Positions 18,042 to 48,286 of a stretch of 64,000 nucleotides of DNA are shown here, in pieces. The notes under the pieces were generated by a model. That model ran no database searches. It had not been told where the DNA came from and saw only the letters and a program-made list of their open reading frames with translations. Within the stretch, counting starts at the first letter, position 1, and each line of letters opens with the position of its first letter. The position numbers and the translations under genes were made by a program. This DNA is from Cenococcum geophilum (lineage: Eukaryota), in NCBI GenBank assembly GCA_050273025.1, contig CP158635.1, forward strand, positions 11,656,001 through 11,720,000, given 5' to 3'.

Positions 18042-19790
18042 TAAGGGGTACGGCCGAGTGTAGAATTACATACCAATCGCTTTAAGTTTAGCGTAGATAT
18101 TCTACCTACTAATTAACTCCCCTGCATATACAAGGCGGTAAAGCCCTTAACCTTATATTTTTGGTGTTAATTCTTAATAAACGCGTAAACAATACTATAA
18201 AATGCCCTCTTACTACGCTAGCGGCCGCTTATATGGCTTAATTAACACTCCTTATATAATAAAGGCAGCTATAATTACCTTAAGGCTCTTTAAAAAGGAT
18301 TCTTGGCATAAAATTAAGCGTTAAACTGGGGTTAATTACTCTATATGCATTAAGATCTTCTAAAAAGTAGAGGAGGATACTGGGAATTGCAATTTCTATA
18401 ATATATTAGCTATACTAGATAGAACCAAGCACCCTAGGCAACAGCTAAAGGTAAAAAATAGTAGTAAGTTGTCTTACAAGATATGGTAAAACATCCTACG
18501 CTTTAAAGACTATTTATTTAAAGAAGCTACGGCACTAGCTATTACTATAGCTAGCCTCCCTTTATAAAAACTGGGCTATAAACCGCTTGCTAGATTAACT
18601 ATTAAAAAGATTACTTATAAGCACCGGGATCCCCTCTATAATAAGCCAATTATATAGGGAATTAGGCCTTATAAGCTAGCTCTTAATATAAATTAAAAAG
18701 ACCTAAGATTTAAGCACTATTCTTAAATTTAAAATACTATTAAACGGACCTAGGGAAATATTATTTTTATCTATTCTAATAAGAGCCCTAAGTAGTTTAG
18801 GCTAGGTAAATTTAGGGGAAGAAAAGCTAGAGTCTCTAGGTCTTAGGGAGCTGATGCTAATAAGTATATGACTTATACGTAAGCCCCCTATTTCTTCTTC
18901 TCTTTTTAGGGTATAATATACTTAGATCTATCTATTCCCCAGCCTTATATTATCTGGGAGCCTAAATCTAATAAGCAGCAGGCTAAATTACAGCGGGAGG
19001 TAATTATTAATAATAAGAAGGCTAAAGAAAGGGCTAAGAAGAAGTAGGAGAATATATTTATTCCTAATACTATAGAATATAATTATATACAGGAGATTAA
19101 TAATAAGATTGCTAGGGATAATTAGCGTCTTAAGTAGTAGGGGATTAGGAAAGGAAGATGTTATCTTTATAGGCCTAATTAAGAGTATCTATATAAGGTT
19201 TTTATAAGAGGAAAAGGTAAAGGGATAGATATAGCTTAGTATATAAACCGTATTCTTAAGCCTCTTCTTTATCTTTACTATATAGTAGTTAAAAAGGCTA
19301 ATTCTAATAAGGAGGTGTGGTTAATTAAGGATAATATAGCTCTGCATAGGTTTGCTTAAAGGAAGCTTTCTTATCTAGCTAAAGAGCTAGGTATTCTCTT
19401 TATAGATTATCCTTTTAATTCGCCTAATTTACACCTAATTAAGCGGTGTTTTAGGAGATTAAACTATAAGGTTAATATCTATAATTATAATAGCGCTTTA
19501 AAGGCTGCTAAGAAGGCAGTAAGAGAGTAGTTAAGTAAAATATAGAGGGAGGATAAAGATTTAGGTAATTACATCCTCCATTAGGCCTTAAATAATACCT
19601 TTCTATTGGTCGCAGAGAAGTATAAATTAAAGGGTGGAAATAACAACTTCACGGCATAAATTTGTACTTGGTTTGGTGTATTATTATATAGAATTAAATA
19701 AGTTGTAGTGGTTTAAATGCGGGTGCAGCATTTTGGTGTTCGCACCCCTGCGCTTACGTAATGTGATTCTTCACTCGGCCGCACCCCTTG
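18042..19790 (+). mobile_element. Tc1/mariner DNA transposon, copy 1 (RIP-degraded DDE transposase ~18203-19659)
   Basis: TIRs (c/t)aaggggt(g/a)cggccgagtg ... cactcggccgcaccccttg with TA flanks. De-RIPed motifs SDES, W-LIEDNA-H and NSPDL-PIE. Confidence 0.92.
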
Positions 19791-19792
19791 TA

Positions 19793-20483
19793 ATAATACA
19801 GGGCGCTCCCCCTTGTAATGCCTAAGTTACGTAGTGCTGCATAGCCGCCAACGGGGCCTGCTGCGTTAATCGATTTCTACAGTATGCAACGCCGAACATC
19901 GCCCACCACCAAAATTCTTATAGAAATTGATGAATCGCGTTACATCCCACCACCCACGTATAATAACCTTGCTGTCGCTATCAGAATCGTGCTTTTGCTT
20001 AGCCGGAAATTTTGACATTGTATAGCCCTGCCCTTTAGTAAACTTATAGATATCATCAAGCACAAGCTTTTGAAACTCGTACAGCTTTAACGGAGGTAGG
20101 TTGAGAACTATGGTGGATGGGACAAATGCGATGTGTTGATTTGAGTATGGGTGCGCACTTTGATTTTCGCGATGCAGAATAATGCTCACGCTAAACCGTA
20201 TTAAATTTCTGTCCACACCGCTAAGCTAAATTGAATTTCTGTCCTAATTCTTGAACTCCCCGACTTTGCAGCAATACAATAACCCAACCATAATAGATAT
20301 TTAAAATCTGAAACCTACGCGCGACTTGCCGTGCTTTATTCTACCTTGCCCGCGTGAAAAAATCACTATTACTTACTAGACCTATTTATTTATGTTGTGG
20401 TATTTGCATGGCATTTTTGGTGTTCCTCGCTCAAATTTTCGCCAAGTCCCCGCCGCGTCCACTTAATCCTAACACCCTAACTC
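19793..20483 (-). mobile_element. Mutator-like (MULE) element 5' fragment
   Basis: Minus strand starts GAGTTAGGGTGTTAGGATTAAGTGG (MULE-like terminus). ORF 20216-19866 contains LPPLKLYEFQKLVLDDIYKFTKGQGYTMSK, resembling the FAR1-like N-terminus of fungal MULE transposases. Confidence 0.5.
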
Positions 20484-20774
20484 GTGTGAGGTGTCGCGAC
20501 ATTTACAGTCGCCATATTTACCGCAGAGGGCCACGTTAAGGGGACGCAACACTTTTAAATATCGAAGTAGCACGTCTAGCGAAGCTTTACTTAAGGATAG
20601 TGTTGCAGGGGAACCTTCCATGGCGCTTCTATGTCGTTAGCCCATGAAAATCCAGGTTTATGGTCGCAACTAATTGCTGGGTCACTTATTGCACGACCCG
20701 CATACCTCGCTTACCCTACTTTTGTATGGGAAATTCACTTATTGCTCAGCACCAAGTCGGAACCTAACGTTAAT

Positions 20775-21710
20775 TAATTGTTATAGTGGTGGTTAAAATG
20801 TTATAGGGGGTAGTAAAAAGTTTTCGCATAGGATGGTAAGATCTCGAAAACCACTACTAACGGTACTCCCTTTATAGTAGATAACTACTATATTCTTTTA
20901 TTTAACCCTATATAACCCTTATAGATATAATATAAAATCTAATATCCTTTAACCCCTAATTAAAAGTATTAATAACCTTATATTAATAAATAAGCAAATA
21001 TATATAAATAGATAAGCAAATATATATAAATAAATAACTAAATATATATAACTAAATAAGCAAATATACGGCCCCTTTTTAACTCCTAGGGCGATCGCCT
21101 ACGGAGTATATAGTTATTTACCATTAACTACTAAATACCTAGTAGCCTGGATTGCGACCTACGGTTTTCCCTATCTCCTTTTATCAGAGTTATAACCCTT
21201 AAAAAGGGCCTAGCTAGGGCCTAGGCATAAAGATACCTAAAGTACATAATATATCCCACTATTAGTACTACAGTAGCTAGAATAGATAAATCCCCCTTAT
21301 ACTTTTAATGGCTTAGGGGGGGAAGGCAAGGCATATATAGTAATAGTTAACAAGAGATAGTATATAAGGGACGGTTAAGATATAGGAGAAATAATAAGTA
21401 TACAGCAATTAATTGGCAAGGCCTAGCTGGGATATAGTAAACCCCAGCTTAAAATAAGCTAGAAAAGGAAGTAGTGGTTCCTAAAGAGTTTAAAACATCT
21501 AAGTAGGAGGACATGTATAGGCCTATAGGGCCGCTACTATGTATAAACATAGTAAATTGGGTTTTTTTTTAATCTAACTAAAGTAGCTTATAGAGTTTTT
21601 CCTCCCCTAACTACAGGGGTTTTCTTCCTATAAATATATAAGTTTTCCCCCCTATAATATGGTAGTCTATATAGGCCAGTGGGATCTATATTAGACGTTA
21701 ATCAAAGAAT
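20775..21710 (+). mobile_element. SINE-like retroposon, RIP-degraded copy lacking the 5' ribozyme
   Basis: Reverse-complement homologue of 48452-49330 (e.g. gatggtaagatctcgaaaaccactact; 3' ttagacgttaa). No clear TSD found. Confidence 0.8.
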
Positions 21711-22212
21711 TATTATTGTATAAGTTATAATATTAAAGCCTTATTTATAACTTATATACTAAAAACTAAACTTAATTAAATATTAATATAACTTACTTAA
21801 TAATATAGCTAGAAAGTTCTAAATATACCTTAAATCTTTATTATTATTATATAAAAAATAACTAAAGTTTAAAAGAGTACTTTTTAAACTTAATTTTTAG
21901 TATATATATATTAAATATTTATAAAATAAATATTATAAAAAGATAAATTTAGTATTTAATAAGCCAGATTTAAATTTTTATATAAATATCTATAATTGTT
22001 ATTAAGCTATAAGTATTTAAAAAAGACGTATTTTGGTGTTTTTTGGTGTATTTTAGCCGTGCATTGAGTGGGACCGTGCACGGAACGGGGAGAACTCCTA
22101 GTGCTGGCACCGATAAAATCTTATCCGATACGAACCGATAAAATATCGGTATTGCCAATATTGCCGATATTCCGATAATATCGCAATATTTCTTGGCACA
22201 CCAAAATATTAA

Positions 22213-24411
22213 TATCTCAACAACCACTTAATAATAAATTCTAATAATTTAGATTTAGGCTTTTATATATACTCTATAGCTTCTATTAAAGTTGCATAAT
22301 AAATAACGTCTTAGCCACCCAGACGAGACAGCCACCTACCCGAGACAGTGCACGGACCTCCTACGAAAATCAAAATTAAAACATCAAAATACTCCTCTAC
22401 TACATCACCACTATGTCCTCTACTACCCCCCAATTGCTGTTGCTTGGCCAGGAAGATCGAATGCAAATTGTTCTTTAATTATTGGAAGCTAATCCTAATT
22501 AATCTGGCTGTTTGCTTGCCCGAATATACAATCTATTACCTTTTTTTGTTTACTATTGTTGTAACAGTCGCTAATTAAGTAAGGAGTATTACCAAAAGCT
22601 TTAAAAGCTCTTAGTTATTAAGGAGGACTCCCTAGTTAAATAGATTAATATAATAGGAGCCTAGGATTGGCCACCTTAAATTTAACACCTTAAATCTATA
22701 GCTAAAAGTATCCTTACTGCAAAGAAGCGTCCTCTAGAGTTTGGCCAATACTAGTATAAAAACTTCCTTACCCGATACCTAAAGCTTAAAGCTTAATTCG
22801 CCTAAGGCCTTAATTAAAAGTAAAAGGATACTAAGAATCTAGAGATTATTAAAGAGTGGTTTAATCTTTATAAAGCTACTATTACCAAGTATATAATTCC
22901 CCTAGGCGATTAATATAATATAGATAAGAAAGGAATTATAATGGGGTTAGGCGATAAGGTTAAGGTACTTATTCCTTAATTAGAGGCTTAAGCCTTTATT
23001 ATAGAGCCAGGCAATCACGATTAGGTGTCTATTATTAAGTGTATATTAGGAGGCCAATTAGGAAGTTAATTAGGAGGTTAATTAGGAGGTTAATTAGGAA
23101 GTTGATTAGGAGGCCAATTAGGAAGTCAATTAGGAGGTTAATTAGGAGGTTAATATCGATTACCTCCCTACTTTATCTTTTAAGGAAAGCAAATATAACG
23201 ATCTTAAATATTACCTAGACTTAATCGCGAGACAGTAATTTAAGTAAGCAATTCGGGGTAGACAAATTTGGATATTGCAGTTAATTAGTTAAAATACTTT
23301 AACCAGTATACAGAGCTACGCCTTTAAGGAATCTATTACCTATTAATTCTTAATGGACACAAGAGCCACGTGTTAATATAATTTATTAAGTATTACGAGG
23401 CTTATAAGATTATCCCTCTTTATCTACCACCTCATTTAATATACCTACTTTAACCCCTAGATATTGGCATATTTAGTCCCTTATTAAAAGCCTATTAAAA
23501 ACGCCTCTACAACTTCGCCTTCTATAGAGCTATTAATATTACTAAGCCTACGTTCCTTAAGTATTACTAAGCTATATAAGACAAAGCTATATTATTAACT
23601 AATATAGCAAGTATATAGCGGGCAACTAGCCTTCTACCGTTTAACCCTTCGGTTGTTTTAAAAAAGATTTAGCTAATAACTCCTTCCTATATAAGCTTTA
23701 CAGATAAGAATGGCCACAAATTTAATATACCCGTGTCTCCTTCCGTAGAGAAGAGACTTACTAAAATATTTGGGTAGCTCTTACAAGGTGCATCACCCCT
23801 ATATTCTTAAGTTGTGTATAATATTCGGCAGTTTATATTAAGTACGGTAGCTAATAATATAATCCTCAAGCGAATAAATTAGAAGCTTCTTAAAAGACAG
23901 AAGAAGGAGCGTATTAGTAAGACAAGAGCTGCCTATAGGAAGGTATGAGTTTTATTAGTAGCAGAGGCATAGAAAAAGAACAATAAAAAGCTTTAAAAGG
24001 AATAGGAAGAGAAGAGGGTAAAGGAAAGAAAGGCTGTATTATGGGGGGTTATTACCTTTATAAAGAAGGTTTAGAAGGAACTACCAATGGATTATAGTGT
24101 ATTTATATAATAGGGTAGATTTAGGTTGACTTTGGGGTTGATTTTAGGGTCGATTTTGATATCAAATTGATTTTGATTTTCGTAGGAGGTCCGTGCACTG
24201 TCTCGGGTGGGTGGCTGTCTCGTCTGGGTGGCTAAGACGTTAGTTGAGTAGTTTTTAAGATATAGTAATTTGGCCTCGTTTTGGCCCCTAAAATTTAATA
24301 TTTTAAAAACTACTAAACTATTTATTATGTAACTCTAATAGAAGCTATAAAGTATATATAAAAGCCTAAATCTAAATTATTAGAATTTATTATTAAGTGG
24401 TTGTTAAGATA
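22213..24411. mobile_element. Fold-back MITE (~110-bp arms), left arm interrupted by pogo element
   Basis: tatctcaacaaccactt... is inverted to ...aagtggttgttaagata; flanked by TTAA on both sides. Confidence 0.7.
22306..24240 (+). mobile_element. pogo/Fot1-like DNA transposon (RIP-degraded transposase ~22413-24110)
   Basis: ~70-bp TIRs acgtcttagccacccagacgagacagcc...; TA TSD; de-RIPed DDD motifs YNMDEKG, LLILDGHKSH and QPLDIGIF. Confidence 0.95.
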
Positions 24412-25255
24412 TTAAGGTACGAATTTTCTAATTTTTGGTAAGGTTTAAGGTAAACGGGTTACCTATATAAATAGGCTACCTATAAACTATATTATCTTCT
24501 ATCTATATAATATTATAATATATTAATTTAAGAGATTAAGGATTTTAAAAAAATTTATTTTTAATACTATTGGTAAAGGGGGGGGAGTAGGCGTATAGGG
24601 GACGGAGCTAGCGGTCTTCTCCCCATAGGGTGCCTATAAGGTTACTAAGGTTTTAGGGGTATTTAGCGGGTCTAGGGGCATAGACCGCCTAAAATCTCGT
24701 TACTTAGGTGACAGAGCCCCCATAACTTTAGCGATCTTATAGGGGTTAGCCACTAGTCCCAAAAAGGAACCAATATTGGCAATATTATATTGCCGATATA
24801 TTTCCGATAGCCGATATTTTATCGGTTCGTATTGGTTCGTATCGGTGCGTGCGTATAGGTCGGCCAGACCACGCTAAAAGGTCGGCCCAATAGGCGAAAC
24901 CTCCGCCCGCCACACCAAACCCCACCCTTCCCCTCCCAAACTGACCCTACCATCCACCCTATCTTTTCTTATATATCTATCTTAAATCTATTATAAAAAT
25001 ATTTTTTATATAATAATTATTACCTTAAAGAGCTATATAAGCTATTTATAGCTTATTTTATAGTAATTTTAATAGTTTAAGCTATTTATAAAGCCTATTT
25101 AAACTAAAATAAAATCCTATAAAGGTAAATAATAAGTTTTTTCTAATATATTTAAAATATGTTTCTAATACGTTTAGAATATATTTATAACTAGTTATAA
25201 ACCTATTCTAGCTATATATAATTAAAATATATTAAGAATTATTATTAAATATAAT

Positions 25256-28200
25256 AATAATAATTTATTACTTAACGTCCGATTTAGATCCCTATTAGGC
25301 CCACGCGGACTACTCCTTATGTATATATGGGGAGAAAACTCTATTTAAGAAAACCCCGTAATCCATCTCCCCGCCTTTTAAGACTTGCCTATAAGGCGCC
25401 TACGAGGCGCCTGCGAGTTACCTATAGTGCTCCTACTACTTTACTTTTTAACCTTCTTAGGAACTACTGCTGCCGTAATAAGCCTATAGACGCGTTAGTA
25501 TCGCAAACTTTACTCTACTACTATAGAGTCATTAGGGGGCGCCCGTTGCTCGCCCCCCTACTCTTTATTACCATTTCCCTTATAACCCGGAACTGGTTTA
25601 GTATATTTTAGCTAATAAGCCACTAGGTAACCGCCTTAAGGCCTTTTTATATTAAGAGTAGTATATTATAGTTCTTTATGCCAGCTACTAAAAGTATTAC
25701 TTTTTGGTTAGTGCGTAAGGGGTATAACAGTATTATATGTTTTAGTGTCTGTCTTAGCCAGCCACATTTATATCTTAGGCTACCTACTAGGACACCCACC
25801 CGGTAGAGCCAGTCTTTTAGTCCTATTATTCCTATTCTTAAGAGTATCGCCATTATATTTTCTACCTTTATTAGGCTTTCTTAGAGCCCTAAAGTGTTTA
25901 CCCCCTATAGCGTTAACCATGCTACAGCTTAGGTTCCTCTTATTTTAGTTAGCCTCTGTACCTTTAACTCCTATACACCTCTTTAGCGTTAGTCTAACCA
26001 GTATTATATTACGGTAGATAGTTTCCTAGCGTTCTTTTATGCTCTGCTTTAGCTCCTTTCTCTTTCTTACTGTTATCTTTACTGGCCTCTTACGCGTCTT
26101 CCTTTTTCCTCTATATAGGCCTAGGCCCTAAAGCAGTACTATTCTTCTTCTGCTTTCTTTACCTGTTTCTCTAATATGTCTTTCCTACTTTAGGGTTATT
26201 AGTTTGTTCTCCTATAAGGCGCCCTAAGGTCCCTCTATAGTTTATTTAGGCGTGTCTTAATATACTTTATAATATTAGAGTTACGTTTATTTTAGGCCCT
26301 TTATATTGCAGCGGCTTTAATATATAGTTATAGGGGGGGAATATTAGCTTCCTTCTTAAGCAGTGCTGTGGCCGTTTACTTATATCCGCCTATTATACTT
26401 TAGAGGTAGGCTGTTTGGACCTTTTGGAGTGGTTTAAGGAGCGACTTAGGGGGGCCTTTCTTAGATTCTCCAATGGCCCAAATACTGGACCTATATGTCA
26501 TGGTTGGCCGGACAACTACTATATATAGTAGACGTGACCTCTAAAAGCATGGGCCCTATGTAGAATTAACAATCCTAGATAATATAATATACTATACTTA
26601 GCCCTTATAGGCCGCTTACGCCGCATATACGCTCTATTAAAGCTTACTGTCTACCTATACTCCTAATACCCTTAGGCCCTAAACTAGTTAACCCCTAAAG
26701 CCTTAGATGCCGATTATATGCTAGAGATCTATAGATTAGTTACGTTTTCTTATAAAATAGATTAGCTGGTATTTCTCTGGTAAGAATTAGACTTTATATC
26801 GTCTTACCTATTCTATATAGGTGTTATAAGCTTTCTCTAGCATTCTACAATTCTCTATAGCTGATAGCCCGTATATAATTAGGTTTGTGTCGTTAACGAA
26901 GCCTATCCCCTAGGTCGCCCCTTCCTTAAAGGAGTTAAGCAGGTTGCTTATAAAGAAAAGGAAGAGTATAAGCGAGAGGGGTAATCCTTATAGTATTCCT
27001 ATTACAACTGCGATAGGGGGGCTCTGGTATCCGTTAAAGACTAGTAATGTTTCTTTCTAACCTATAAACCCTTAGATAAATTATACAATCTATTCTAAAA
27101 AGCCTTTTACCCTAAGGATATATAGGAGACGCTCATAGGGTACGTTATTGTAGGCGCCACTAATATCTAGGCTAAGCATTAATACTACAAAGTCCCTTCA
27201 TATCGCCTATGTAGATTTAATGGTGGCAGCGAGTAGCGTAAGTGCTAATAGTGTTAAGCGGTTCTTTCTTGCCCCCATTTAGCTCTGTAGTAGTAGGGCG
27301 TGTTCCTTAGCCGTGTCTACTATATAGTCCGCTATTACCTTTTCTAAGATCTTGCTAAGGGTGTTTTCTAAGGCAATAGGGCGGTAGCTTCCTGGGATTG
27401 AGTAATCTGCTTTACCTTCTTTTCGTAGGACAATTATCGTCATAGATCTTCTAAGTCGTGGGTAGTAGCCTATAGTAAAGTATGCTCTAGCTACATCTAT
27501 AAGCTAAGGTACTATAAGTGGTCCATAGGTCTTTAAGGCCTTATTTAGAATCCTATCTAAACCTAATACTATATTATTTAAAAGGCGGCTAATAGTTCTA
27601 GCTATTTCCTCTATTATTATATCACTGTTAACCCGTAGGTAAGTCACCGGTGCTTTACCCGTAATATTACTAAGGTCTACTAAAGCCGGTTAAAGGAAGA
27701 ACCTTTCTATAAAGATCTTTGCCTTCTTATCGTTATTATTAGTGGCCTGTAATTCCCCTGCTCTTCGTAGGGGTAGTAGGTATAGGTCTTCTACTAGTCG
27801 CCCTGCCTTTTTCTTTGCCTATTTTGCTATAGCCCACAGGCCCTTATTATAGGGAAGGCTTAGGTTAAAAGTATGCTTATTTATAAATTATCTCCAGTTG
27901 TTCCTTACTTTTTTTTTTAGGGTATTCTTTAACTAGTTTCTTATGTCTTTATATTGTCTCTTATCTTTAGGATTGTGGCTGCTTAAGTATTTCCTTCTTA
28001 CTCGTTGTTAGCTAGCTATAAAAACCGCGCATTATATGGACCAAGCGTATTACGTATAGGGGCCCAGTCTTAAGACCGGGCAGTGCTCTTCTAGCCCATT
28101 TTTAATTGCTGCCTAGATCCTTTCTAGTCTTCGGTTAATTTCCTTAGGGGTGGCTAATAAGCCTTACTTATTTAGTATCGGGTGGATTTCTTCTAGGTCT

Positions 28201-30801
28201 TAGAGTTATTATTTAACTATATTAAGGAAACTGTCTGCCTTAAGCATCCTTATTACGTATCTTTTGCTATTTAGTTATGCCTTAATGTCTAAATCTAGCT
28301 ATATCTGGATGGGGATATGGTCTAAGGTAAATGCCTATTCTTCTTTAGGGTTATACCTTTTAAGTCTCTAGTATAGGCCTTCATCTATAAATATAAGGTT
28401 AATTATACTTCTAGCAGATCCTCGTTGCCATATAATTGCTTTAGGGGGGGTAGCTAGCTTAAGGCCCCAGGTGTCTATAGCTTTTAGTAGGCACTCTACC
28501 TATTATTTAGCAGCGACGTAGATACCCCCCTACCGCGGGTAGTAGGGGTTTATGTCTCCTAATAGGATAAACTCTATACCTTTAGTTTTAAGTAAGCTTA
28601 TTACTAATATAATATTCTCTGTTTATAGGACCCCTTTAACCCTAGGGTTATATACATTAATAATTTATACCGGTCCTCTATATATCTAGATTATTATAAC
28701 TACAATATCTAGATTAACTGCCTACTATAACCATAAGGATAGGCTAATAGTTTTACTGATTATAAAGCATACGCGTGTGGCTGCTTTTGGTTCGTATAGG
28801 AGCTGGAATCCTTAGGGGCAGTATGTCGATTATATATAGGTATTGTAGTACGGCTCTTATATAGTAAGGATATAGTATTTCTTTGGGTCTAGACTGTCTA
28901 GTAGGGGCCTTACAAGACGGTGGTTTGTATTACTATAGTTATACTATATAATAGATAGGTAGCGGACCCCCAGTAAGGGTCCTTCGCCTCTCTCTTATTC
29001 CTTACTTCTTCTATTTCCACTTTCTCTAAAATATTTAAAACTTCTATCTCTTGTGTCTACACCCTGGTTACTACTTATTTTATATAGAGCTTTCCATTTC
29101 TGTGTCTTATATTCCTACTAGCGCTTCTATATCTAAATCTATTATTATCTCTAGTTCTTCCCCTGTTCTTACTAGTTAGCTATATACCCTTTAAGAGTCG
29201 GCTATAAATGTTATATTTACCGCATTAAGTCTAATTCTTAATTGTCCTGGTTTTAAGCTTACTATAGCTATTTATAAGGGTCTTCCTACAGGGCGTCCTC
29301 TCCCTTATGTCCTCTATAACCCTTATATCCCTATACGGTCTAGTGATATCGCGCGGCGTCGCTTCTAGCCTATTAAGGCTTAGGATAGCTAGCCTAGCCC
29401 CCTAGTATTAAAGATAGGAAACGCTAGAAGGGCACCTGCGCCCCCCTAGCTTATCGCCTGTTATTTCTATTCGTATAACCTAGTATGTAGTTATTCCCGT
29501 AGCTGTTAAGCCCTAACCTTCCGTCTCCTATATTTAATGCAGTCTTCTCTCTCTCACACCTTATGTATGCTTCGGTGGCAGTTTACGCATTTTGTTTGGT
29601 CTTAATTTAAGTAATATCTTATATCGTGGGGGCCTGTACAGTGGCCGTAGCATACCTATACTGCGCATGTAGATTAGGTGTGCCCCTATTATGCGCAGCG
29701 ATAGCATCGTTTTAGGCGAAGTCTGTAGTTATAGAGCCTTACGTCGTATATAAGGCCATTTATAATAATACCTTTTTAAATAAGGAGTTTTTGCATTCCT
29801 AGTATATATGTGCTAACGATAAGGGAGCCATGCGTTTGACCAGCGTTTCCCTAGCGAGTCTCTAGCGACCCTTATATTCTTTTATTATTCTCATTATATA
29901 CTTGGTTTGTATTTTCCTATTAAAGCCATTAGATTTAGGTAATCTTAAGTCCTAGTATAAGGCGTTCCGTTTGTTTTACTATCTTATATATAGTTGCTAT
30001 ATTATCCGCCTAGCGTCCCTTTTCTACCCTAAGGCTTAGGGGAACCGCTAGGACTTCGACTAGGTAATCTTTACGGAGCACTTTTATACTAATACGTTCT
30101 TCTAGCCTATCCCCTGCCCTAACAGCTCGTTCCTTTACCTATTAGTCCCTTAAGGTAACTCTAATATCTCCGCTCCTAAGGTATTGGACTATAACAGCAT
30201 TATAGACCTCTTTGCGAATTTTTGTAAGGACTTTTATTTCTAATTGTCCCCTAAGCCCCTCTACTTTTTCTATATTTGGTTATATTATAATTATATACCC
30301 AAATATTGTCTTTAGGGGGGTAGGTTCCCTATGCTATAGACGCGCAGCTACGGCAGCCCAGGTACGGTTCGCCGGTAAGGAGGGGTTTTATTTATTTTTA
30401 ATTTTACTTAGCCGTTAAAGGATTTGATTAAGGGTTTACTAAAGGGGCGCCTAAGGTTCGCTAAACTGGCGGAGCCATTCTGCTAGCTATATTAGTTTAT
30501 TATAGCTAACGGTTACTCCCCCGTAATTACGGATACTAGACGCGTCTAATAGGCTTTATACTTTATTAGATGCCTTCTTAATAGAGGTCTTTCCGCTTTA
30601 TGGTGTAGTATTCGCCTATTCTTATTATAGAGGGCCATTGCTAGGCGTGGTTCTGGTGGACGCACACGAGTGCAAACCACCGTCGTTTGACGTGTACCTC
30701 CCCTACGATGCATGCATCTTAGGGGGATTCTCTAGGTGTTTTTCAGGGTTTTTTTTTAGTTGGTTTTAGTCTTTTTAGGCCAGGTGCAGCAAGAGCTCCT
30801 T
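25256..30801 (-). mobile_element. Full-length Tad-like LINE (ORF1 from ATG 30638; ORF2 endonuclease-RT-zinc knuckle), RIP-degraded
   Basis: 17-bp TSD ttattattaaatataat (25239-25255, 30802-30818). ORF1 has CCHC knuckles (~29550-29700). Endonuclease QYN...IQEP (~28950-28850), RT GFVDD (~26890), C-terminal CGW-RQT-KH (~25760). Confidence 0.92.
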
Positions 30802-30889
30802 TTATTATTAAATATAATTTTAGTAGTTTAAGCTACTTTATTATAACTAAAAACTATATATCTTTATATATATAAATAAGGCTTAAATA

Positions 30890-32973: not shown

Positions 32974-33069
32974 AAGGCTTAAATATAAATATAAATATAT
33001 TTTATATATTTATTATTATATACTAGCTTTTATTACTTTTAATAATAATAATAATAAATATATATATTA

Positions 33070-33765: not shown

Positions 33766-33987
33766 ATGCTATTTACTTACTTTATATTAGACCTTATATC
33801 TTTTAAAAAAAATTAAAAATTTTAAGGGTATTTATAAATTTTTATTTTTTACCTTTTATATTTAAAGAACTAATATTATTAGCTTAGGAATATATATTTA
33901 GCTAGTTTATATTATATTTAAATATTATAAACTTATTTATATATACTTTTTAAATAAATATAATAAATATAACTTTTATTTAGTACC

Positions 33988-36900: not shown

Positions 36901-39900
36901 GTTATATATCTTAGCAGCAAGCCAGTACTCTAAGTTATTAACTTCTTAACCTCCTTCTAAGCCGTGTGTTTCTTAAAAGATATATTAGCTAGAAATATAT
37001 AGGAGACCCTTTAGTTATGCTAGATTAATATCTATTTAGGACCCCCTAATTAAATTGTCTACAATATAAAAAAGAACTTCTTATTTATAGAGTTTCGATA
37101 ATAGATAAAGGTAATAGCAATTAAGGTTAAGGAGGTCCCTATTAAGGCATATAATAGTATTAAAAAAGTGGAACAATATTATGCGCTATTACGCCGCGTA
37201 TATAAGATTATCTCTTTAGAACTAAAGGACGCTAGTAAAAAACTTACTTTATAAATAGCTGTTAAAGCTATTAATAATTCCGCTAGCCTAGATAGACTCG
37301 TACCTACATTACTAGTCTTTGGCGCCTACTCTTAAATAACTAACAATTCTCTACTATCTCCCTCCATTATATAATAAGCTAAGGCTATTTATAAGGTAAT
37401 AAAGGAGGTATAATATCTCTATGCTATACGCCAGGTTAACAATATACTAGGAATAAGAAATAGCCTAAATACCTTAACTACGCTCGATCTGCCACTCTAG
37501 TTTAAGGTACGCGTATAGCGTAAAAAGGGAGGATAGTTAGGCCCACACTAACTTATTATAATTAATGGTTAAACTTATATTATTTAGATACCTTACGGAC
37601 CTACTTAATTCCGTTTAACTGTTATTAAGCCTTATTATAAAGATAATAATTCCAAGCCTTTATAAGATGCCCTAGAAAATACCCTAGAAGAGAACTATAA
37701 TTAATATACTTTAGAAGACAACTATAATTCTAATATAATTATAGTAGATGCGCCATAACTATAATGCGGCAGAGGTCGCCTAAAGGGATCACAAAATCGC
37801 CAATATCTTATTAATTTTAAAGAACAATTTGTTGCCGCCATTAAGAATAAAGTTAAGTTATTAATGGCCTTTATAACAGCTAAGGAGAAGGCTAACTTTA
37901 AGCTCGTAAAACAACTCCGAAAGGAAGGTTGTATTATAACCTCTAGAGCTCCTTTCTAAGCATCCGATAAGTAGGAGATCGATAGTCTTATTATAAGAGA
38001 AGTCTTTAAATTTAAGAAGTATAACCCTACTAAGTTTAATGGAGTTCGCATCTTTAAGTTAAGAATGGTTAATAAGATTAAGGGTAAAGCTACTAACGCC
38101 CTATTTAAGAAATTAAGGCTTATTATCTAAGGCTATAACAATAATAGTAAGGAGGTAATTCTTATGTAGTCTCCTATGATTTAACAAGCTAGTTAGTAAG
38201 TTATTATTACGCTAGCTCCCTCCTTAATAAAGAATAGAATGGCGGTTTATTTACGAGATATTACTTAAGCCTATACCTAATTAGAGACGTACCTTTAGCA
38301 CTTAATATTAGCATACCTTTTAGAGTAAATTCGCTACTAGTATCCTAAAGATACGATTATAGTTATACTTAAGCCATTATATAGGATCGCAGAGATAGGA
38401 ACTTACTAGTGGGCTACCTATAGCAAGCACTATAAAGAGAAGCTTTTAATAACTACTTCTATATTTAATCCCTACTTCCTTATTATAACTACGGGAACTC
38501 TATTTAGAATTATCGGCATACAAACTAATAATATAATTATTTTAGGAGACAACCAATTCTTAGCTCTTAAAGAAGACGAGCTAGTAAAGGCAAATCTTAT
38601 AGTAAAGCCAAAAAAAAGCTTAGTTTAATAACACTATTACTCTTTAACGGATGCATCCTCTCCCTAAATAAGGATTCTATTGCTCTACGCCAGAAGGGTT
38701 AAAGTAAGAAGATTAACGTTATTAACGCTAATTCTCTAAAGTAAGGATATATGGAGTAACGCGCTTATAGAGCTTATATTGCTTCTATCTATTAACCTAA
38801 GGCTTTATTTAATCTCTCTATTACCGCCTAATACTAGGAACTAACTAAGGATAATATCCTTGCCCTAAATAAGCGTCTTTTCTGGTAAATAAACTATCTT
38901 AATTAGGGACTACTCTATATGCCTATTAATCTTCCTATTACTAAGCTCTTTATATTTATTAATAAATCGTTTATAAATAATAAAGATTTTAGCTCCTAGT
39001 TAGGATATAAGATTATTATTATAAATAAATTTACTAGAGAGAATAACTTTATAATCCATGGTAATTTTATTTATTAGAGCTTAACTAAGAGTAAGCGCGT
39101 TACCTAAAGTATTTTAGCGTTAGAGATATATAGAATAGTTGGCGAAGTTAATATAGTAATTGCAATTAGAACTACCCTAAAGATAATTATAGATTAACTT
39201 AAATTTCCTGTTATCCCTATAATTATATATACTAACTTATATTCCCTCTATAAGTATTTAGTTAAGCTTAGTACTACAAAGGAGAAGCGCCTTATAATTA
39301 ATATTATAGCACTTTAGCAATCCTACGAGCGTTAAGAATTCTTTAAAATTTAATAAATTAATAGCTAAAATAACTCGGTAGATATAATAATAAAGGCAAA
39401 CCTAAATAAGGCACTAGAGACGTTTATTAATATAAATACTTTACATATATAAGTTAAAGGTTAGGTTAAAAGGGAGTCCCTAAAAATTTCTTAGTTATGT
39501 AAGGTCTTAAGATATCCAGGAACTTTAACCGGCGGTTAAAGTTATCTAATTAGTTAGATTCTCTTGCTAAGACTTTTTAAAGTATAACATTCTATAGACC
39601 CTAACTTAACTTAGCTAATTAGGATTTTTCATCCCTAGGATAGAAAATTGCTATTAGCTTGCTTATTACTAGCGCCTTAGCGGCCCTCTAAATAAGATAT
39701 CTACCTATAACTCCTAAGTAAGAAAGCACTACGTGCTAAGAGGCAAATTTTGGGATAGCGAGACTTATATTATAATGGCAATAGTAAGTAAAGAGGATTG
39801 ATATTTGCTACGCTAGTTAAGCGGTATATATATATATAGATGGCAACTATAAAAGAAGAGTTGCTAGTGTTGGGAATAAAGGCAAGTGGTTACTATATAA

Positions 39901-40082
39901 GGCAAATTGCCATTATAGGTAGCAAGTTGCCGTTACGTGCGGCAAGTTGCCGTCACGTGTCGCCGCGGCAGTAGCGTGGCGAGGAGCCTTAAGCTCCTTG
40001 CCCTCCCTGACATATATAAGAATAATAATCATTATACTATCTACGAACCGTAGCTATATAATATCCCCTTGTGTAACTAACA
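33988..40082 (+). mobile_element. Full-length GalEa-type Copia retrotransposon (RIP-degraded)
   Basis: LTRs 33988-34182 and 39868-40082; TSD GTACC; ctaattagt after the 5' LTR; gag-pol ~34588-39480 with de-RIPed IMPDTGAA protease, LHRRFGH integrase and GMQTDD RT motifs. Confidence 0.95.
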
Positions 40083-40722
40083 GTACCTAAAGAGCTTAAA
40101 TAATTCTTAGTTAAAAATATAATAAAAGAACTTTAGATTATATATATTTAAAACTAAATTAAAAAGTACCTAAAATTAGATTAAAATATATTAGAAACTT
40201 AATTAAATTTTATAGCTATATTTAACTCTAAGATACTATTTTATAGGCCTAAAAAAATTATTTAAGTTAGAATATATATTAAATATATTCTAAATACGTT
40301 CTAAATACGTTCTAAATACGTTCTAAATACATTATAACTAGGTAAGTTGTGTAGTAGAATAAGCGATTTAGGCTCGGTTGACCATACGACTTTGTATTTT
40401 GAGCTGGGGCTGCCCCGTACAGGGATTGTGCATTAGCGCTTATGGTAGGCCGACCTTTTAGCGTGGCCTAGCCGACCTGTAACCACTATCGGTGCCAGCA
40501 CTGAGAACTCCTAGTACCGCCGACCTTTTGCCGGCGGTGACCACGTTCAACTTTTCCGTGACTGCACCCCGCGAAACCATGACACAGGGTTAACAACTTA
40601 CCGACCTCTCGACACAGACCCTGTAGGGAGCTACATCCTCGGCCGCCACTCACTCCGAGTTACCGTACGACAAGACAATCTATTAAGAACGGCTTCCTAA
40701 GCACGAGCCCTCCGCCGCCGGC

Positions 40723-43442
40723 ATGGCTGTTCGGCGACCCTCTGGGCGCAAAGACTTCGAGATTGGGATAATTTGCGCATTACCACCAGAATACGACGCT
40801 GTTTCCCTTATCTTTGACGAATTTTGGGATGAAGATGGCGACCCGTACGGGAAAGCGACTGGAGACCACAATTACTACACGACTGGTCGCATTGGCAAGT
40901 ATAACGTCGTCCTGGCTCTGCTTTCTCACATAGGTAAAACCAACGCTACCAGCGCAGCCCATAGCTTACGGCTAAGCTATAGTGGGCTGTGGCTTGTTCT
41001 CCTTGTTGGAATCTGCGGCAGGGTGCCTCGCGTTGGCGCTAAGGAAATCTTGCTAGGCAATGTGGTTATTAGCAAGACTATCGTCCAATATGACTTTAGC
41101 AGGCGATATCCTAATGGGTTTATACGGAAAGATACCATTAAGGATAACCTTAGCAAGCCAAATAAGGAGGTCCGGAACTTATTAGTTATGTTTAAGACGG
41201 ACCGTAGCATAGAACTGCTTTATCGAAGAACTGCGAGCTTCCTTAAAGAGCTCTAGGCAATAGCCGCGAAACGGAGGGGGGGTTGAGGTAAATACAACTA
41301 CCCTGGGACGGCTGAGGATAAGCTATTTGAATCGAATTATACACACGGTAGGGAGTACCGTAGAACACCCAGCCATGTCTGCGACGAGTCCTTTAACCTA
41401 TCTTGCGAGGAGGTGGGATGCGATAAAAGGCGCTTGGTGCCAAGGGAACGACTTAAGATAAAACAACAGCTAGAGCCTAATAATATCAACGAAGCATAAA
41501 AGCCTGCCATCTATGTCGGGCCTATTGCGTTAGGTGATATAGTTATAAAGTCTAGGGAAGACCGAGATACAATTGCAAGGAAAGAAGGTGTTATTGCATT
41601 CGAGATGGAGGCAGTAGGCGTCTGGGAAGAGCTGCCTTGTTGCATTATTATTAAAGGAGTATGCGACTATGCTGACAGTCATAAAAATAAGAAATGGTAG
41701 AATTTTGCTGCTGCTACCGCGTCTTCCGTTACAAAGGTTCTTCTAGAACGTCTTATCCAAGAAGACAAACCGTTGGCGCCGGCTATGCGTGACGGTGGGT
41801 TCTAAATTTCTTTGAACCTACTAGTAAGATTACAAAATCTAAACTAACACTGCTAGTGCCTTAGAACGAGCTGATGCGTCCAATATGCTCCAAAACAGTA
41901 TCCTAGGTTATAATATTGCGAGATTATAACAAGGGAACAATATTATAGGACTGCCAGAACCAAATTAGTTAACTATTCTTATAAGCCAACTAGCTTAAGG
42001 CCTGCCTCCCCAAATCAAGTATCAAGACCCTGTGATGGTAATTGATGCGCGGAATCGACCTATACCCTTTTTTTTAGACACAATAGGTTCTGTAGAGGTC
42101 CGCAAAGACGCTTTATTGCAGCCTTGACGTAGTATAGGGACGCTAACGTATATCTAGCTCTTCACCAAAATTCTAAAGGAGAAGTTTAAAGACCTTGGGT
42201 TAGGAAAGATAAAGCGAGGGGAATAGTACCTTAAGGACCACTATTCTGGGCAAATCCTTAATCTTACAAAACCTTGGAAATCGCTTATAAGGGTAGGTCT
42301 CCTAGGCTAAAGGAGGTGTATGCTAGTATACTAACTCCAGTAGCCTGGCCAACGCCTTAATATGGCTATGATATTCCGCCGACGGAATATATTATCTATA
42401 TAATGTCCAGTATACCATTCCAAGAATATTGGTGATCCTAAAATATAAGTAACATAGTAGGTATTCCTAACTGTTATTATATTGGAACTGCTTAACTTAG
42501 ATATAGTATAGCCATGTATGCGCTTTAACGTATCGCCGTATTAAGGAAATCCAAGAGATACCTGTCCTAGAGGAAGATTCTTAGCCTCAGCCAAGGACAG
42601 CAGTCCCTCAAGTAACTCCTAAGGGAAAGCATAAAGTTCTAGCGCCCTTACTAAGACCTAGACCACTAAAACCACAGAATAACGACGACGATATTAGCCG
42701 TTATAGCCGTGTGTAGGTTATTGACACTAGTTTCCAGATCCAAAAGGCTGGGAAAGGTAAGATGGTAGCGGGTCTAGCTACGCTAAGCATGCAGGATTTG
42801 GGCGATCCCGAACGCCTAGCAGCATATCTTGCAACAGTTTGCGGTCTCCCGGAGGAGGATTGCCTAGTCGCTCTAAGGGAGTGCGAGGCGCAGCTCCTAG
42901 CTATAAGGGCCGAATTATCATCGCCTATCAAAATGGGTGACCCAATTAGCTCTGCATTTGGTATTGTCCGTGTCCTCAAAAGCGCCTACGACCTCTACAA
43001 TGCCTGCACACAGGCCGGAGAAGATTTTCGTACCCTTTCGAAGCATGTGCAAGGCATGATGATTGTTCTCGAAGGAGTCAATTCTGATCTTGTTAAAAAT
43101 CCTCGGTCCGTCGTCAATCGCGGAGATTACATAGCAAGGAACAAATCAACGCGTCTGAAAAATTTTATCGTGAGCTGCGAGGCTAGCCTAACGAAAGTAG
43201 AGGCGTTACTAGCAAAATATCACAGTTTCCAAAGGATCCGTCCTAGCGACTGGGATAGCTTCAAATGGGGGGCTAGTGGAAAAGCCGAAATCGCAAATAT
43301 TGAAGCCGATCTAATCTTATCGACTCTACTGCTGAACGCATTTATGGCGAAAGAGGGACTTAACGTACTCGACCGAGTTGAGCAAGCGATTTAGTCATTG
43401 ATAGGACGGTTTGACCGGCTAGGATACGGACAGTAACACTTG
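40723..43442 (+). pseudogene. RIP-damaged fusion gene: PNP_UDP nucleoside phosphorylase domain + ubiquitin-like domain + HeLo-like (fungal STAND N-terminal) domain; 3' end cut by an LTR
   Basis: PNP motifs IGIICALPPE, LLVGICG, AFEME, KGVCDYADSHKNKKW (40723-41790). After an intron: QDPVMVIDARNRPIPFFL...PGQRLNMAMIF...CP-C (~42000-42550). In frame with MGDPISSAFGIV...AYDLYNAC...WDSFKW (42933-43394). In-frame stops at Gln/Trp/Arg positions (41254, 41284, 41497, 41698, 43392). Confidence 0.85.
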
Positions 43443-43872
43443 TGTCGAACGGAATCTGGATGTCTCAGTTGCCTGTACTCCTCTCCCCCTCATATATATA
43501 GCCTCTATTTCTTCATAGATCAATCTTTACACGAGTCCTCCTGTAACCGACTACGGTACCCTACCAAAACACTACCCTGTCTTGTCTCGTGTCACCGTAT
43601 AAACCTTGACTCGGTCACCGACTCGGTCACCGACTCAGTCAATTACCCACTTATTGTCTACACCTTTCTCATGTATATATATCACTTGATTTCCATAGAT
43701 TTACAATTAAGTCGCTTATTCAATCCTTCACACTGCAAAGCTTACACCTCCTTTCCTGACCTTATTTTCAGGTCGACAGTTATGAGCCCGGGGTTGTTTC
43801 CCACACAGTGATTACCACTTTTGATCAGCTGTTCCTATAGGCTCGTGTCCGGGTACCGCTTGTACTCGTGAT
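43443..43872 (+). mobile_element. Truncated Copia 5' end: LTR 43443-43778 plus PBS-like site
   Basis: tgtcgaac...ggtcgaca followed by gttatgagccc, typical of fungal Copia leaders. Confidence 0.65.
43542..43746. mobile_element. Solo LTR nested in the preceding LTR
   Basis: tgtaacc...gcttaca; TSD CCTCC; related to 50379-50593. Confidence 0.88.
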
Positions 43873-46557
43873 CAGGGTGGTTTTGGATAAATCTTATCGC
43901 GATAAGGATATCCATTACGTCGTATCGCGATAAGTCTTGGCATACCCCAAATAAATCCCCAGTCGCCTTCTTTTTCTTTATTATCGTATAAAATATAGCT
44001 TTAAAAGTAGAATTAGAAATTCTCGACTCTATTAATACCTCTAAATTAAAAATATAAGAGGTTACTTAGCTAGGTGGTTATATATTTTTAATTAAACGTT
44101 ATTATTAACCCAAGGTACGAGTGGTCTATATTTTCGGGTCCCAGATTTCAAACTTTGCCAAGCCAGCTTTTAATTAGTCTAAAAAAAGCCGCGGGCGGTA
44201 TCTACCTGCAAAATACACGTGACGAACTTCAAAACATTAAGTTTAACTAAAGCTCTGCAAAAGCTCTGTATTAAGCTCTACCAAAGCCCTGCAAAAGCTC
44301 TACACAAAGCTCTACAAAAGCTTTACCAAAAGCTCTACCAAAGGCTTTGCAGCACCTCTGCCTACTTAGTGTACTGGCCACGTAGTAAATGGAGCACGCA
44401 GTGCGCAGGGGGGTCCAAGGGGGTCTCCCCCTTGAAGCTCTGCTCAAAGCTCTGCTCGAAGCTTTACTTGAAGCCCTATACGGAGCTCCAAAGCTCTACT
44501 AATACGCAGCACTAATATACTAGGAAGTCTCACAATCATCTCGATGAACGCCTCTACAAACACCTCTACGACGGCTCTACAATTGGCTGTATAATCGTCC
44601 GTACAAACGGCTCTATAAACGGCTCTACAAACATCTACACGATCGCCCGTACGAACACCCATACGATCGATTAATCAAACATCCATACAATCAATCAATC
44701 AGACGCCTATACAATTAATCAGACGCCCGTATAAACGTCTCTACGAGTGTCTATAAACGTCTCCACGAACGTCTACAATCGCCTATACAATCGTCCATAC
44801 GAACGTCTATACAAACGCCTGCACGAACGTCTACACGAACGCCTGCATAAACGCCTGCACAAACGCCTATATAAAGCTCTGCTCGAAGCTCTATACAAAG
44901 TCGTTTATAAGGCCTTTAAAAACAAGCCTAAATACAAGCTCTATTAAAGCTCTACATAAGGCTCTATCAAAGCTCTGCATAGAGCTCTACTAAAGCTCTA
45001 CAAAAGCTCTGCATAAACCTCCGTACAAAGCTCTATAAAAGCTCTGCACAAACCTCCGTACAAAGCTCTGCAAAAGCTCTACTAAAAGCTCTACTAAAAG
45101 CTCTACCAAAGCCTCTACTAAAGCCTCTGCAAGAGCTCTGCCTACGCAATAAATGGAGTACGTAGTGCGCAGGGGGGTCCAAGGGGGTCTCCCCTTAAGC
45201 TTAAAGTTCTACTTGGAGCTCTATTTAAAGCCTAATACAGAGCTCTAAAGCTCTACTAATACGCAGTACTAATATACTAGGAAGGTTCTATAATTGGCCA
45301 TACAAACATCTGTACGATTAATCGCCGTATAATTGTCTCTACAAACGGCTCTATAAACGGCTCTATAAACGTCTACACAATTGCCCATACAAACGCCCGT
45401 ACAAACACCCATATAATTAATTAATTAAACACCTATACGAACGATTAATTAAACACCCATATAATTAATTAATTAAACACCTATACGAACGATTAATTAA
45501 ACGTCTATATGATTAACTAATTAAACGTCTATATGATTAACTAATTAAACGTCTATATAATTGCCTATACGATTGTCTCTATAAACGTCTCTATAATTAA
45601 TCGCCCGTATAAATGTATGCATACCTATTGTAACGTGGCCCGCCTCCACGTCGCCATACGGCCAAAAAGACTGAGAGTGCTTGCGAACTTGTCGCAAGCG
45701 CGGCGGGACCTAATATATATACTCTTACACCTATATATAGCTCTATAGAAGCTCTATATAAAGCGCTATATAAAGCTCTACACAAAGCTCTATAAAAGCT
45801 CTACTAAACGCTCTACTAAAGCCTCTATAAAAGCTTTGCCTATGTAGTAAATAAAGTATATAGTGCGCAGGGGGGGTCTAAGGAGATCTCCCCCTTAAGC
45901 TTAAAACTCTACTTAAAGCTCTACTTAAAGCCTAATACAGAGCTCTAAAGCTTTACTAATATATAGCACTAATATACTAGGAAGGCTCTATAATTATCTA
46001 TATAAACGGCTTTATAAACGGCTCTATAAATATCTATATAATCGCCTATATAAACGCCTATATAATTGGTTGATTAATTAATTAATTGCCTATATAAACG
46101 CCTACATAATTAATTAATTAATTGACTAAACGCCTATACAAATGTCTCTATAAACGGCTCTATAAATAGCTCTATGCATAGCTCTATGCATAGCTCTATA
46201 AACGTCCATATAATTAATTAATTAAATGCCTATATAATTGCCTATACAGTTATCTCTATAAATATCTCTATAATTAATCGCCAGAATAAATGGCTGCACG
46301 TTTATATATCTATATATCTGCACGTAGCTCTACGCAAGACTCTATATAAAGCTCCGTATAAGGCTCTATTAAAGCTCTACCTAAAGCTTACCCCCTACTA
46401 TAAAGCATAATGAAGGTATAGGATTTACGAAATAAATCTATACCTATTAGTATATGTTAATTAAGCTCTATACAATACGGCTCTAAATTAAAGCTTTAGG
46501 TTAATTAATTAGCTTATTAATTATAAACTTAGGTTAAATTTTTTGTTAGGAGTACTA
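43873..46557. repeat. Unpaired DNA-transposon-like ends followed by a higher-order tandem array (about 3 x 700-760 bp of ~12-bp subunits)
   Basis: CAGGGTGG start with tatcgcgataag repeats (43873); TTAA-CCCAAGG at 44105-44115; unit marker gcgcagggggg(g)tc at 44403, 45167 and 45865; aaagctcta/aaacgccta subunits. Confidence 0.75.
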
Positions 46558-48286
46558 TAAGGGGTGCGGCCGAGTGTAGAATTACATACCAATCGCTTTA
46601 AGTTTAGCGTAGATATTCTGCCTACTAATTAACTCCCCTGCATATATAAGGCGGTGAAGCCCTTAGCCTTATATTTTTAGTGTTAATTCTTAATAAATGC
46701 GTAAACAACACTATAAAATGCCCTTTTACTACGCCGGCGGCCGCTTATACGGCTTAATTAACACTCCTTATATAATAAAGGCAGCTATAATTACCTTAAG
46801 GCTCTTTAAAAAGGATTCTTGGTATAAAATTAAGCGTTAAACTGGGGTTAATTACTCTATATATATTAAGATCTTCTAAAAAGCAGAGGAGGATGCCAGG
46901 AATTGCAATTTCTATAATATATTGGCTATACTAAATAGAACTAAGCACCCTAGGCAATAGCTAAAGGTAAAAAATAGTAGTAAGTTGTCTTATAAAATAT
47001 GGTAAGATATCCTACGCTTTAAAGACTATTTATTTAAAGAAGCTGCAGTACTAGCTATCACTATAGCTAGCCTCCCTTTATAGAAACTGGGCCATAAACC
47101 GCTTACCAGATTAACTATTAAGAAGATCACCCATAAGCACTGGGATCCCCTCTATAATAAGCCAATTATATAGGGAATTAGGCCTTATAAGCTAGCTCTT
47201 AATATAAATTAAAAAGACCTAAGATTTAAGTACTATTAAACAGACCTAGGGAAATGTTATTTTTATCTGTTTTAATAAGAGCCTTAAGCAGTTTAGGCTA
47301 GGCAAATTTAGGGGAGAAAAAGCTAGAGTCTTTAGGCCTTAGGGAGCTGATGCTAATAAGTATATAACTTATACGCGAGCCCCCTATTTCTCCTTCTCTT
47401 TTTAGGGTATAATATACTTAGATCCATTTATTCCCCAGCCTTATATTATCTAGGAGCCTAAATCTAATAAGTAGCAGGCTAAATTATAGTGGGAGGTAAT
47501 TATTAATAATAAGAAGGCTAAAGAAAGGGCTAAGAAGAAGTAGGAGAATATATCTATTCCTAGTACTATAGAATATAATTATATACAGGAGATTAATAAT
47601 AAGATTGCTAGGGATAATTAGCGTCTTAAGTAGCAGGGGATTAAAAAAGGAAGACGTTATCTCTATAGGCCTAATTAAGAGTATCTATATAAGGTTTTTA
47701 TAAGAAGAAAAGGTAAAGGGATAAATATAGCTTAGTATACAAACCGCATTCTTAAGCCTCTTCTTTATTCTTACTATATAGCGGTTAAAAAGGCTAATCC
47801 TAATAAGGAGGTGTGGTTAATTAAGGATAATATAGCTCTACATAGGTCTGCTTAAAGGAAGCTTTTTTATCTAGCTAAAGAGCTAGGTATTCTCTTTGTA
47901 GATTATCCTTTTAATTTACCTAATTTATACCTAATTAAGCGGCGTTTTGGGAGATTAAACTATAAGGTTAATATCTATAATTGCAACAGCGCTTTAAAGG
48001 CTGCTAAGAAGGTAGTAAGAGAGTAGTTAAGTAAGATATAGAGGGAGGATAAAGATTTAGGTAATTACATTCTTTATTAGGCCTTAAATAATACCTTTCT
48101 ATTAGTTACAGAGAAATGTAAATTAAAGGGTAGAAATAACAACTTTACGGCATAAATTTATACTTAGTATAGTGTATTATTATATAAAATTAAATAAGTT
48201 ATAGTGGTTTAAATGCGGGTGCAGCATTTCGGTGTTCGCACCCCTGCGCTTACGTAATGTAATTCTTTACTCGGCCGCACCCCTTA
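46558..48286 (+). mobile_element. Tc1/mariner DNA transposon, copy 2 (direct repeat of 18042-19790)
   Basis: Same TIRs and TA flanks. Differs from copy 1 by RIP-type changes and a ~20-bp indel near 47235. Confidence 0.92.

Follow-up and report, generated by a model that had tools for sequence, protein, structure and literature searches.

We describe in Cenococcum geophilum a 30,245-bp block, made of two directly repeated copies of a Tc1-type transposon and the 26,767 bp between them, that occupies a single TA site of one Copia element, and we propose, with somewhat more confidence than doubt, that it is a dead macrotransposon (composite transposon) moved by way of its outer ends. The window, that is, the whole stretch of 64,000 nucleotides that was analysed (G000:C1:11656001-11720000), is part of a 178-Mb genome in seven contigs and is an AT-rich transposon nest with C-to-T and G-to-A changes, as in fungal repeat-induced point mutation (RIP). 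The structure is that of a composite transposon or macrotransposon: two copies of one element bound unrelated DNA, a single target duplication lies outside an otherwise intact target, and the inner ends stem from separate insertions. We infer movement as a unit from this structure, no scar or second location having been found in genome G000, and the mechanism is likely rather than proven. The two elements and their target sites are located as follows.

18040 to 18041: left copy of the duplicated TA target
18042 to 19790, plus strand: Tc1-type copy 1, with imperfect terminal inverted repeats (TIRs) of about 30 bp and a transposase frame at 18202-19659 killed by RIP
46556 to 46557: inner TA before copy 2
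46558 to 48286, plus strand: Tc1-type copy 2, in the same orientation as copy 1, with a 20-bp deletion
48287 to 48288: right copy of the duplicated TA target

Each of the four Tc1 junctions lies exactly at an element end and at a TA (the one to the right of copy 1 at 19791-19792), which argues that a transposase was involved. An earlier note on this DNA had placed the 30-kb block, with a Tc1 copy at either end, at 18042-48286, and the TA read at all four ends bears it out; its estimate of 26.8 kb of cargo, about 8 kb without a hAT-type nest, agrees with the 26,767 and 8,354 bp that we measured.

The block is hosted by one Copia element, Copia C, whose two halves form the outer flanks.

17193 to 18039, minus strand: host Copia C to the left of the target site, running on past nested Gypsy elements to a 3' LTR about 14.4 kb left of the window
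48289 to 51517, minus strand: host Copia C to the right of the target site, comprising a pair of small nested inserts and a 5' LTR at 51335-51517, followed by the AAAAG duplication

With 60 kb of upstream DNA added, Copia C is present once and is colinear, without gap or duplication, through the nested Gypsy and other inserts, and its halves overlap by three bases at the Tc1 site. Its two LTRs (about -14440 to -14278 and 51335 to 51517 in window coordinates) agree at 154 of 162 aligned positions and have in common the 5-bp target duplication AAAAG over a distance of 66 kb. Furthermore, both halves follow the relative L164 at most of the shared transversion sites, with three mismatches (B positions 35125, 35297 and 36171). 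The shared AAAAG, the single colinear copy and the single haplotype rule out two different Copia copies or Copia+Tc1 units, a case that the earlier note had raised against its own reading. That the flanks are halves of one site, as the same note held, is confirmed by other copies of the element, since the target site is uninterrupted in the two sister Copia copies within the window and in all 30 Copia loci fetched, among them a sister copy that lies in the window itself (of 1275 candidates, 40 had been scored); none of these 30 carries a Tc1 at the site. One of the 30 reads TG there, which makes it probable that RIP created the target TA. With a high-copy Copia as its target, itself marked by a target duplication, the case is unusually clean.

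The two Tc1 copies differ by 110 transitions and one transversion in 1729 sites and by one 20-bp indel, the deletion in copy 2. Their transition distance of 6.4% lies within the range of six nearby LTR pairs (4.1-9.3%) and below that of ten pairs of separate copies (9.3-14.7%), which indicates that they were practically identical before RIP. The pair looks younger than its host: Copia C departs from the family majority at 11 of 3057 sites (p 0.002), about half of these departures being shared with a minor subfamily. Copia B, a sister of the host nested in the cargo, shows 0 departures in 3135 sites, measured against a comparison set made of its nearest matches. Judged from these counts, the order of events would run from the old gene duplications and fusion partners described below (1.3-1.6% transversions) to Copia C (11/3057) and then to the Tc1 pair (1/1729).

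Neither copy encodes a working transposase, given that both frames are broken by stop codons, of which 19, the terminal one included, are common to the two copies and three and four are private. More stop codons are shared than would be expected had the copies mutated independently: 15 shared, 3 and 4 private and 7 unmutated positions gave an odds ratio of 7.4 (p 0.015), but for ten control pairs the ratio was between 0.6 and 4.1 in nine and 25 in one. With controls spread this widely, the excess of shared stops could mean that the element was already dead when it was duplicated, or may lean towards recombination at a third copy or later gene conversion. Three of the four terminal bases of the two copies are now mutated, both outer ends included.

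Canonical Tc1 transposases have the spacing DD34E, with 34 residues from the second D to the E. Like members of the Tc1 family (DDE_3 transposases), the element has a TA target duplication and terminal inverted repeats, the C3 relative being likewise flanked by TA, and its intact relatives carry a D-D-E triad that ends in the motif SPDLHPIE. It differs from that family in its spacing: the relatives P0004 and P0006 have 36 residues between the second D and the E, against the canonical 34, and a long insert brings the distance between the first two D to about 180 residues. The element represents a Tc1-like lineage and not a canonical Tc1. Copy 1 aligns with its two closest relatives at 53-57% and gave no Pfam match in the window; the relatives themselves score 21.1 and 28.1 bits against Pfam DDE_3 (PF13358), below the curated cut-off of 28.6. 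The nearest named relative of the transposase is the Mytilinidion resinicola protein P0005, which matches the C3 relative at 64%.

A third close copy of this Tc1 was not found in the 178-Mb genome by DNA, protein or two TIR-pattern searches. The DNA search scored 3 of 3 candidates, the third being only 71% identical; the TIR patterns gave 6 and 4 matches, with 0 in the controls; and the protein search scored 46 of 46 candidates, all of these genome counts being lower bounds. Close copies turned up only at the two ends of the block, which supports macrotransposition. So does the sister subfamily, with three detected copies, two of which form an inverted pair 1.4 kb apart: it suggests that this Tc1 lineage hops locally and makes close pairs. 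Scans of metagenomes for the TIR and for the start of X_R, the inner flank to the right of copy 1, each gave 0 matches.

Between the two copies lie the following features.

19791 to 20785: inner flank X_R, beginning with TA, single copy when taken as a whole, and holding short dispersed repeats
20786 to 21720: dispersed 0.93-kb repeat of the family found at 48452-49446, probably a truncated non-LTR element
22099 to 40503: hAT-type nest of 18,405 bp with the 8-bp duplication AGAACTCC, holding a MITE, a DDE_1 (pogo-like) element, a LINE-like element and Copia B
33988 to 40072, plus strand: Copia B, an uninterrupted sister of the host Copia
40723 to 42926, plus strand: pseudogene with PNP_UDP and ubiquitin-like (ULD_2) parts, 88% identical in DNA to G000:C2:2771109-2773432, with an intact form elsewhere (P0002)
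42913 to 43423, plus strand: SesA/HeLo-like fragment of N-terminal type, 93% identical to G000:C5:22701471-22701981
43443 to 43778: solo LTR without a matching target duplication
43873 to 44104, plus strand: left part of repeat W, which is split by element Y and whose right part is missing here
44105 to 46555, plus strand: multi-copy repeat Y, truncated at a RIP-made TA that directly precedes its final 13 bases

The assignment of the 0.93-kb repeat follows from the long target duplication of its sister copy. Repeat Y lacks a target duplication, its insertions lie mostly between A and T, and it may be Helitron-like. Without the hAT-type nest, the cargo amounts to 8,354 bp of repeats and a gene-derived fusion; since the nest may have inserted before or after the move, the moved unit would have measured between 11.8 and 30.2 kb. 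Three open frames of at least 120 aa lie inside the block, none of them at a block end, and both block ends are whole Tc1-type copies. Starships carry a tyrosine-recombinase captain gene at one end.

The SesA-like fragment lies in frame behind the PNP part, the junction being at about 42913, and its Pfam match to SesA is weak (E 0.03, below the cut-off). Aligned with the intact protein P0002, the copy in the window shows 17 stops within three PNP/ULD matches, some of them possibly in introns, and the C2 copy shows 6. In its present state the cargo gene thus reads as a RIP-damaged chimeric pseudogene and not as a working host gene. PNP_UDP and SesA/HeLo-like domains are often found at the N terminus of NLR immune proteins in fungi (PMC4986451). 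The paralogues on C2 and C5 differ from the cargo halves by about 1.3-1.6% transversions and have no flanks in common with the cargo; they are therefore much older than the Tc1 pair and are ruled out as donors. Nor does the fusion junction lie where 6 bases match the C2 copy, as P0002 extends two residues further. A weak search for homologues of the whole fusion among the longer proteins returned three matches, none of which spans both sides. The earlier note had the block move a host-type gene: the PNP/ubiquitin-like/HeLo-like sequence is there as it said, but as a RIP pseudogene with these 17 stops and with older paralogues elsewhere.

Repeat Y, which adjoins copy 2 on the left, breaks off at a TA and lacks its final 13 bases; among 16 distinct Y ends this position reads CA in 14 and TA in 2. 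The sequence to the right of copy 1 is unrelated, and it is single copy when taken as a whole. Other copies of Y continue with their own 13-base end and then, to judge from W copies, with the right half of W, and because Y split repeat W the missing flank is predictable. X_R resembles the right half of W no more than expected by chance, with 495 out of 1000 shuffles scoring as high. On these grounds we reject the inner flanks as one empty site; they are unrelated, and the two Tc1 copies therefore come from two separate insertions. A circle into which a single Tc1 transposed is excluded by the same failure of the inner flanks to join (495/1000 shuffles as high), and the joined flanks that the earlier note had named as the sign of a circular intermediate were looked for without success.

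A RIP-tolerant pattern of the Y end followed by the right half of W, searched for in the genome without a positive control, gave 0 matches at up to two mismatches, and all 30 W right halves fetched (of 40 matches) keep their normal left context. The earlier note had suggested looking for the cargo at other loci; neither a second location of the block, nor a donor pair, nor a duplicate of the block was found in genome G000. The donor region is absent from the assembly or altered beyond the search pattern. Of 17 loci with a match to 20483-20766, 15 are no more than 250 kb away from a contig end; a subtelomeric donor was not upheld, the seven compared pairs sharing large blocks and the two closest copies being interstitial.

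Both Tc1 variants are represented among the short-read contigs from runs X1, X5 and X6, and one contig of X1, which may be the source sample, bridges the junction between copy 1 and the cargo (19540-20632) with no differences. This comparison covered 4 of 24 runs over 16800-22600, that is, the left junction only, and bridging was seen at one of the four junctions among the pieces listed. No allele of Copia C with one Tc1 was seen in the 4 runs at the left junction. Run X12 has no contig cover over 18158-19903, where the Tc1 lies; a contig hole proves nothing. An artefact, by misassembly at the Tc1 repeats or by the combination of halves from two Copia+Tc1 units, deserves hardly any weight in our view: it can appeal to the bridging of one junction out of four by a listed contig, possibly from the source sample itself, but it has to face the AAAAG of LTRs 66 kb apart, the one colinear Copia with the same haplotype on both sides, two Tc1 copies that differ at 111 sites and an indel with both variants in contigs of three runs, and the absence of a Tc1 at this site from all 30 Copia copies fetched. 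Misassembly, which the earlier note had given as another ground for abandoning its reading, is in particular very unlikely in view of the 6.4% distance between the copies, the presence of both variants in short-read contigs and the bridging of one junction.

Our working model is as follows. A low-copy Tc1-type element would have inserted twice into a donor region rich in repeats, both times in the same orientation and at a distance of 8-27 kb, at one TA near the end of repeat Y and at another to the left of X_R. The outermost ends would then have been paired by the transposase, and element, cargo and element cut out together and pasted into a TA of Copia C, which was duplicated. The linked pair was mutated by RIP and both transposases were killed, a step that is visible as a pattern, and the donor chromosome region would have been lost, for example by segregation in the sexual cycle that RIP itself implies. 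We favour this outer-end model because one event suffices and no third copy is needed, and maize offers a direct precedent with the reported excision of a 28-kb Ac macrotransposon (PMC9910405). Against it stands the fact that the structure is the same end product as that of recombination at a pre-existing Tc1. Of the two mechanisms put forward in the earlier note, composite transposition by the outer TIRs and recombination between Tc1 copies, both are plausible and we prefer the former. Homologous recombination at a third, now lost copy in Copia C is in our opinion a serious but rather unlikely alternative. Tc1 alone would first have entered Copia C; the cargo with one Tc1 would have left the donor as a circle, through pop-out between two donor copies or aberrant one-ended transposition, and recombined into the Copia C copy, unless two successive ectopic Tc1 crossovers took place instead. 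The four junctions and the outer TA duplication would be identical, the non-joining inner flanks fit a pop-out circle, and an exchange between the copies, by recombination or conversion, would be consistent with their excess of shared RIP changes. However, three insertions and two homology-based events are required, no other close copy was found in 178 Mb, and the predicted donor product with one Tc1 was not found in G000. The low copy number is compatible with a lost third copy, because the donor region is missing anyway.

A route absent from the earlier note is a composite insertion of the maize type, which arises when reversed-ends transposition takes place while DNA is being replicated. 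A donor pair would insert its inner ends into an unreplicated site, the elements and their outer flanks would be re-replicated and the broken ends would fuse, so that the cargo would consist of two fused flank duplicates. This route predicts element ends, an outer target duplication, unrelated inner flanks and one internal repair junction, over 14-24 kb (PMC4270019), and the cargo offers two candidate internal junctions, namely, the PNP/SesA-like fusion at about 42913 and the solo LTR without target duplication. We nevertheless consider this route improbable: the donor pair and the cargo duplicates should persist, usually linked, and none was found, and the paralogues of the fused halves are on two other contigs, at about 1.3-1.6% transversions and with flanks not shared. 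Routes other than these would have to share a very small remainder. Returning to outer-end transposition, we offer a broader and more doubtful proposal, namely, that low-copy, locally hopping Tc1-like pairs act as true eukaryotic composite transposons and that this one may have brought parts of immune-type genes (PNP_UDP, SesA-like), within up to 27 kb of accessory chromatin, into this genome from a different nucleus or lineage. Such an arrival would explain the absence of a donor, of a scar and of another close copy.

Maize Ac/Ds macrotransposons were reportedly described by Huang and Dooner in 2008. In Ac/Ds macrotransposons, as in our block, two linked cut-and-paste elements and the intervening DNA form one unit, of about 10-28 kb, with an outer target duplication, and excision of a 28-kb Ac macrotransposon is on record (PMC9910405); in contrast, Ac is a hAT element that was seen moving in maize lines, whereas the block is of Tc1 type and is the fossil of a single event in a fungus, for which neither an excision nor a second site was observed. 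Maize Composite Insertions likewise have element ends and a target duplication outside and flanking DNA inside, over 14-24 kb, but their duplicate donor DNA stays nearby and there is one repair junction (PMC4270019); here, no donor or duplicate was found. Bacterial composite transposons such as Tn5 and Tn630-NC1 also consist of two copies of one element flanking unrelated cargo. Tn630-NC1, made of two IS630 copies with TATA ends, even belongs to the same IS630/Tc1/mariner superfamily and is also inactive (PMC11544213). Unlike our block, with its direct copies, 30 kb, eukaryotic chromatin and a pseudogene, these bacterial composites measure about 6 kb, carry intact cargo genes and have copies that are apparently opposed (PMC11544213). 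Finally, the 14-kb ToxhAT of fungal wheat pathogens is a TIR-bounded unit with non-transposon cargo in a RIP-affected island, but it has one pair of 74-bp TIRs and occurs in several species, and not two whole elements at one locus (PMC6737239).

Host DNA moved between two whole transposon copies is textbook knowledge in bacteria and is documented for Ac in maize. Word matching in the open-licence literature of PubMed Central and bioRxiv, which is weak evidence of novelty, found no natural Tc1-type composite in a fungus. There is reportedly older work on aberrant transposition of impala in Fusarium. The weight of the present case is limited, with a single dead event and a pseudogene as cargo. 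If our reading is true, small elements of Tc1 type are able to move tens of kilobases within fungal genomes, and such events would have a simple searchable signature, that of a direct pair with outer flanks that together make up one site of a known repeat. The broader and more doubtful proposal made above would further give fungi a route for cargo that depends neither on Starships nor on single-TIR elements like ToxhAT.

Copia A (window 4170-12796) is a recombinant element, since its LTRs match but its gag region is only about 66-68% similar to those of its sister copies. Repeat family Y (window 44105-46555), which has many copies inserted mostly between A and T, shows no target duplication. 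Inside it are tandem repeats and a hairpin motif rich in GC; we infer that the family is Helitron-like. A short repeat at window 20483-20766 has its other copies mostly less than 250 kb from contig ends, in large shared subtelomeric blocks. Two intact-looking HET-domain frames (window 57613-58680 and 61454-63547) directly adjoin the repeat nest.

Within the cargo, the DNA between the two Tc1-type copies, a 225-codon open frame (window 42717-43394) spans the in-frame PNP-tail/SesA-like fusion, and a database search for a protein covering both sides of this fusion returned no such protein among three matches. Past copy 1, 28 bases into the cargo (window 19800-19818), CCCCTTG and then TA form another TIR-like end, which was unique in the genome in a pattern search.

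The Tc1-like transposase lineage represented by the frame of copy 1 (window 18202-19659) and the related proteins P0004-P0007 has DD36E spacing, and its first two catalytic D residues are separated by ∼180 residues with a charged insert. Its database relatives are few (4 matches). Elsewhere in the source genome, G000, locus L198 (G000:C7:12628667-12629701 and surroundings) contains, in a non-RIP region, a 568-residue frame without stops that is 40% identical to the Tc1-like transposase, and a TIR pattern search detected no TIR there. L198 is an intact or domesticated member of the lineage. A sister Tc1-like subfamily is present at the following positions:

G000:C3:15151483-15153221 and 15154622-15161953 (L196-L197), inverted pair, 1.4 kb apart
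G000:C5:4422978-4437511, third copy

A 71% relative of the window element, with the outer 19 TIR bases in common, is found at L022:4772-6502 (G000:C3:1224773-1226500), inside a MITE-like element, in its terminal repeat. This relative has suffered less damage from repeat-induced point mutation (RIP). An element of its kind might have provided transposase in trans.
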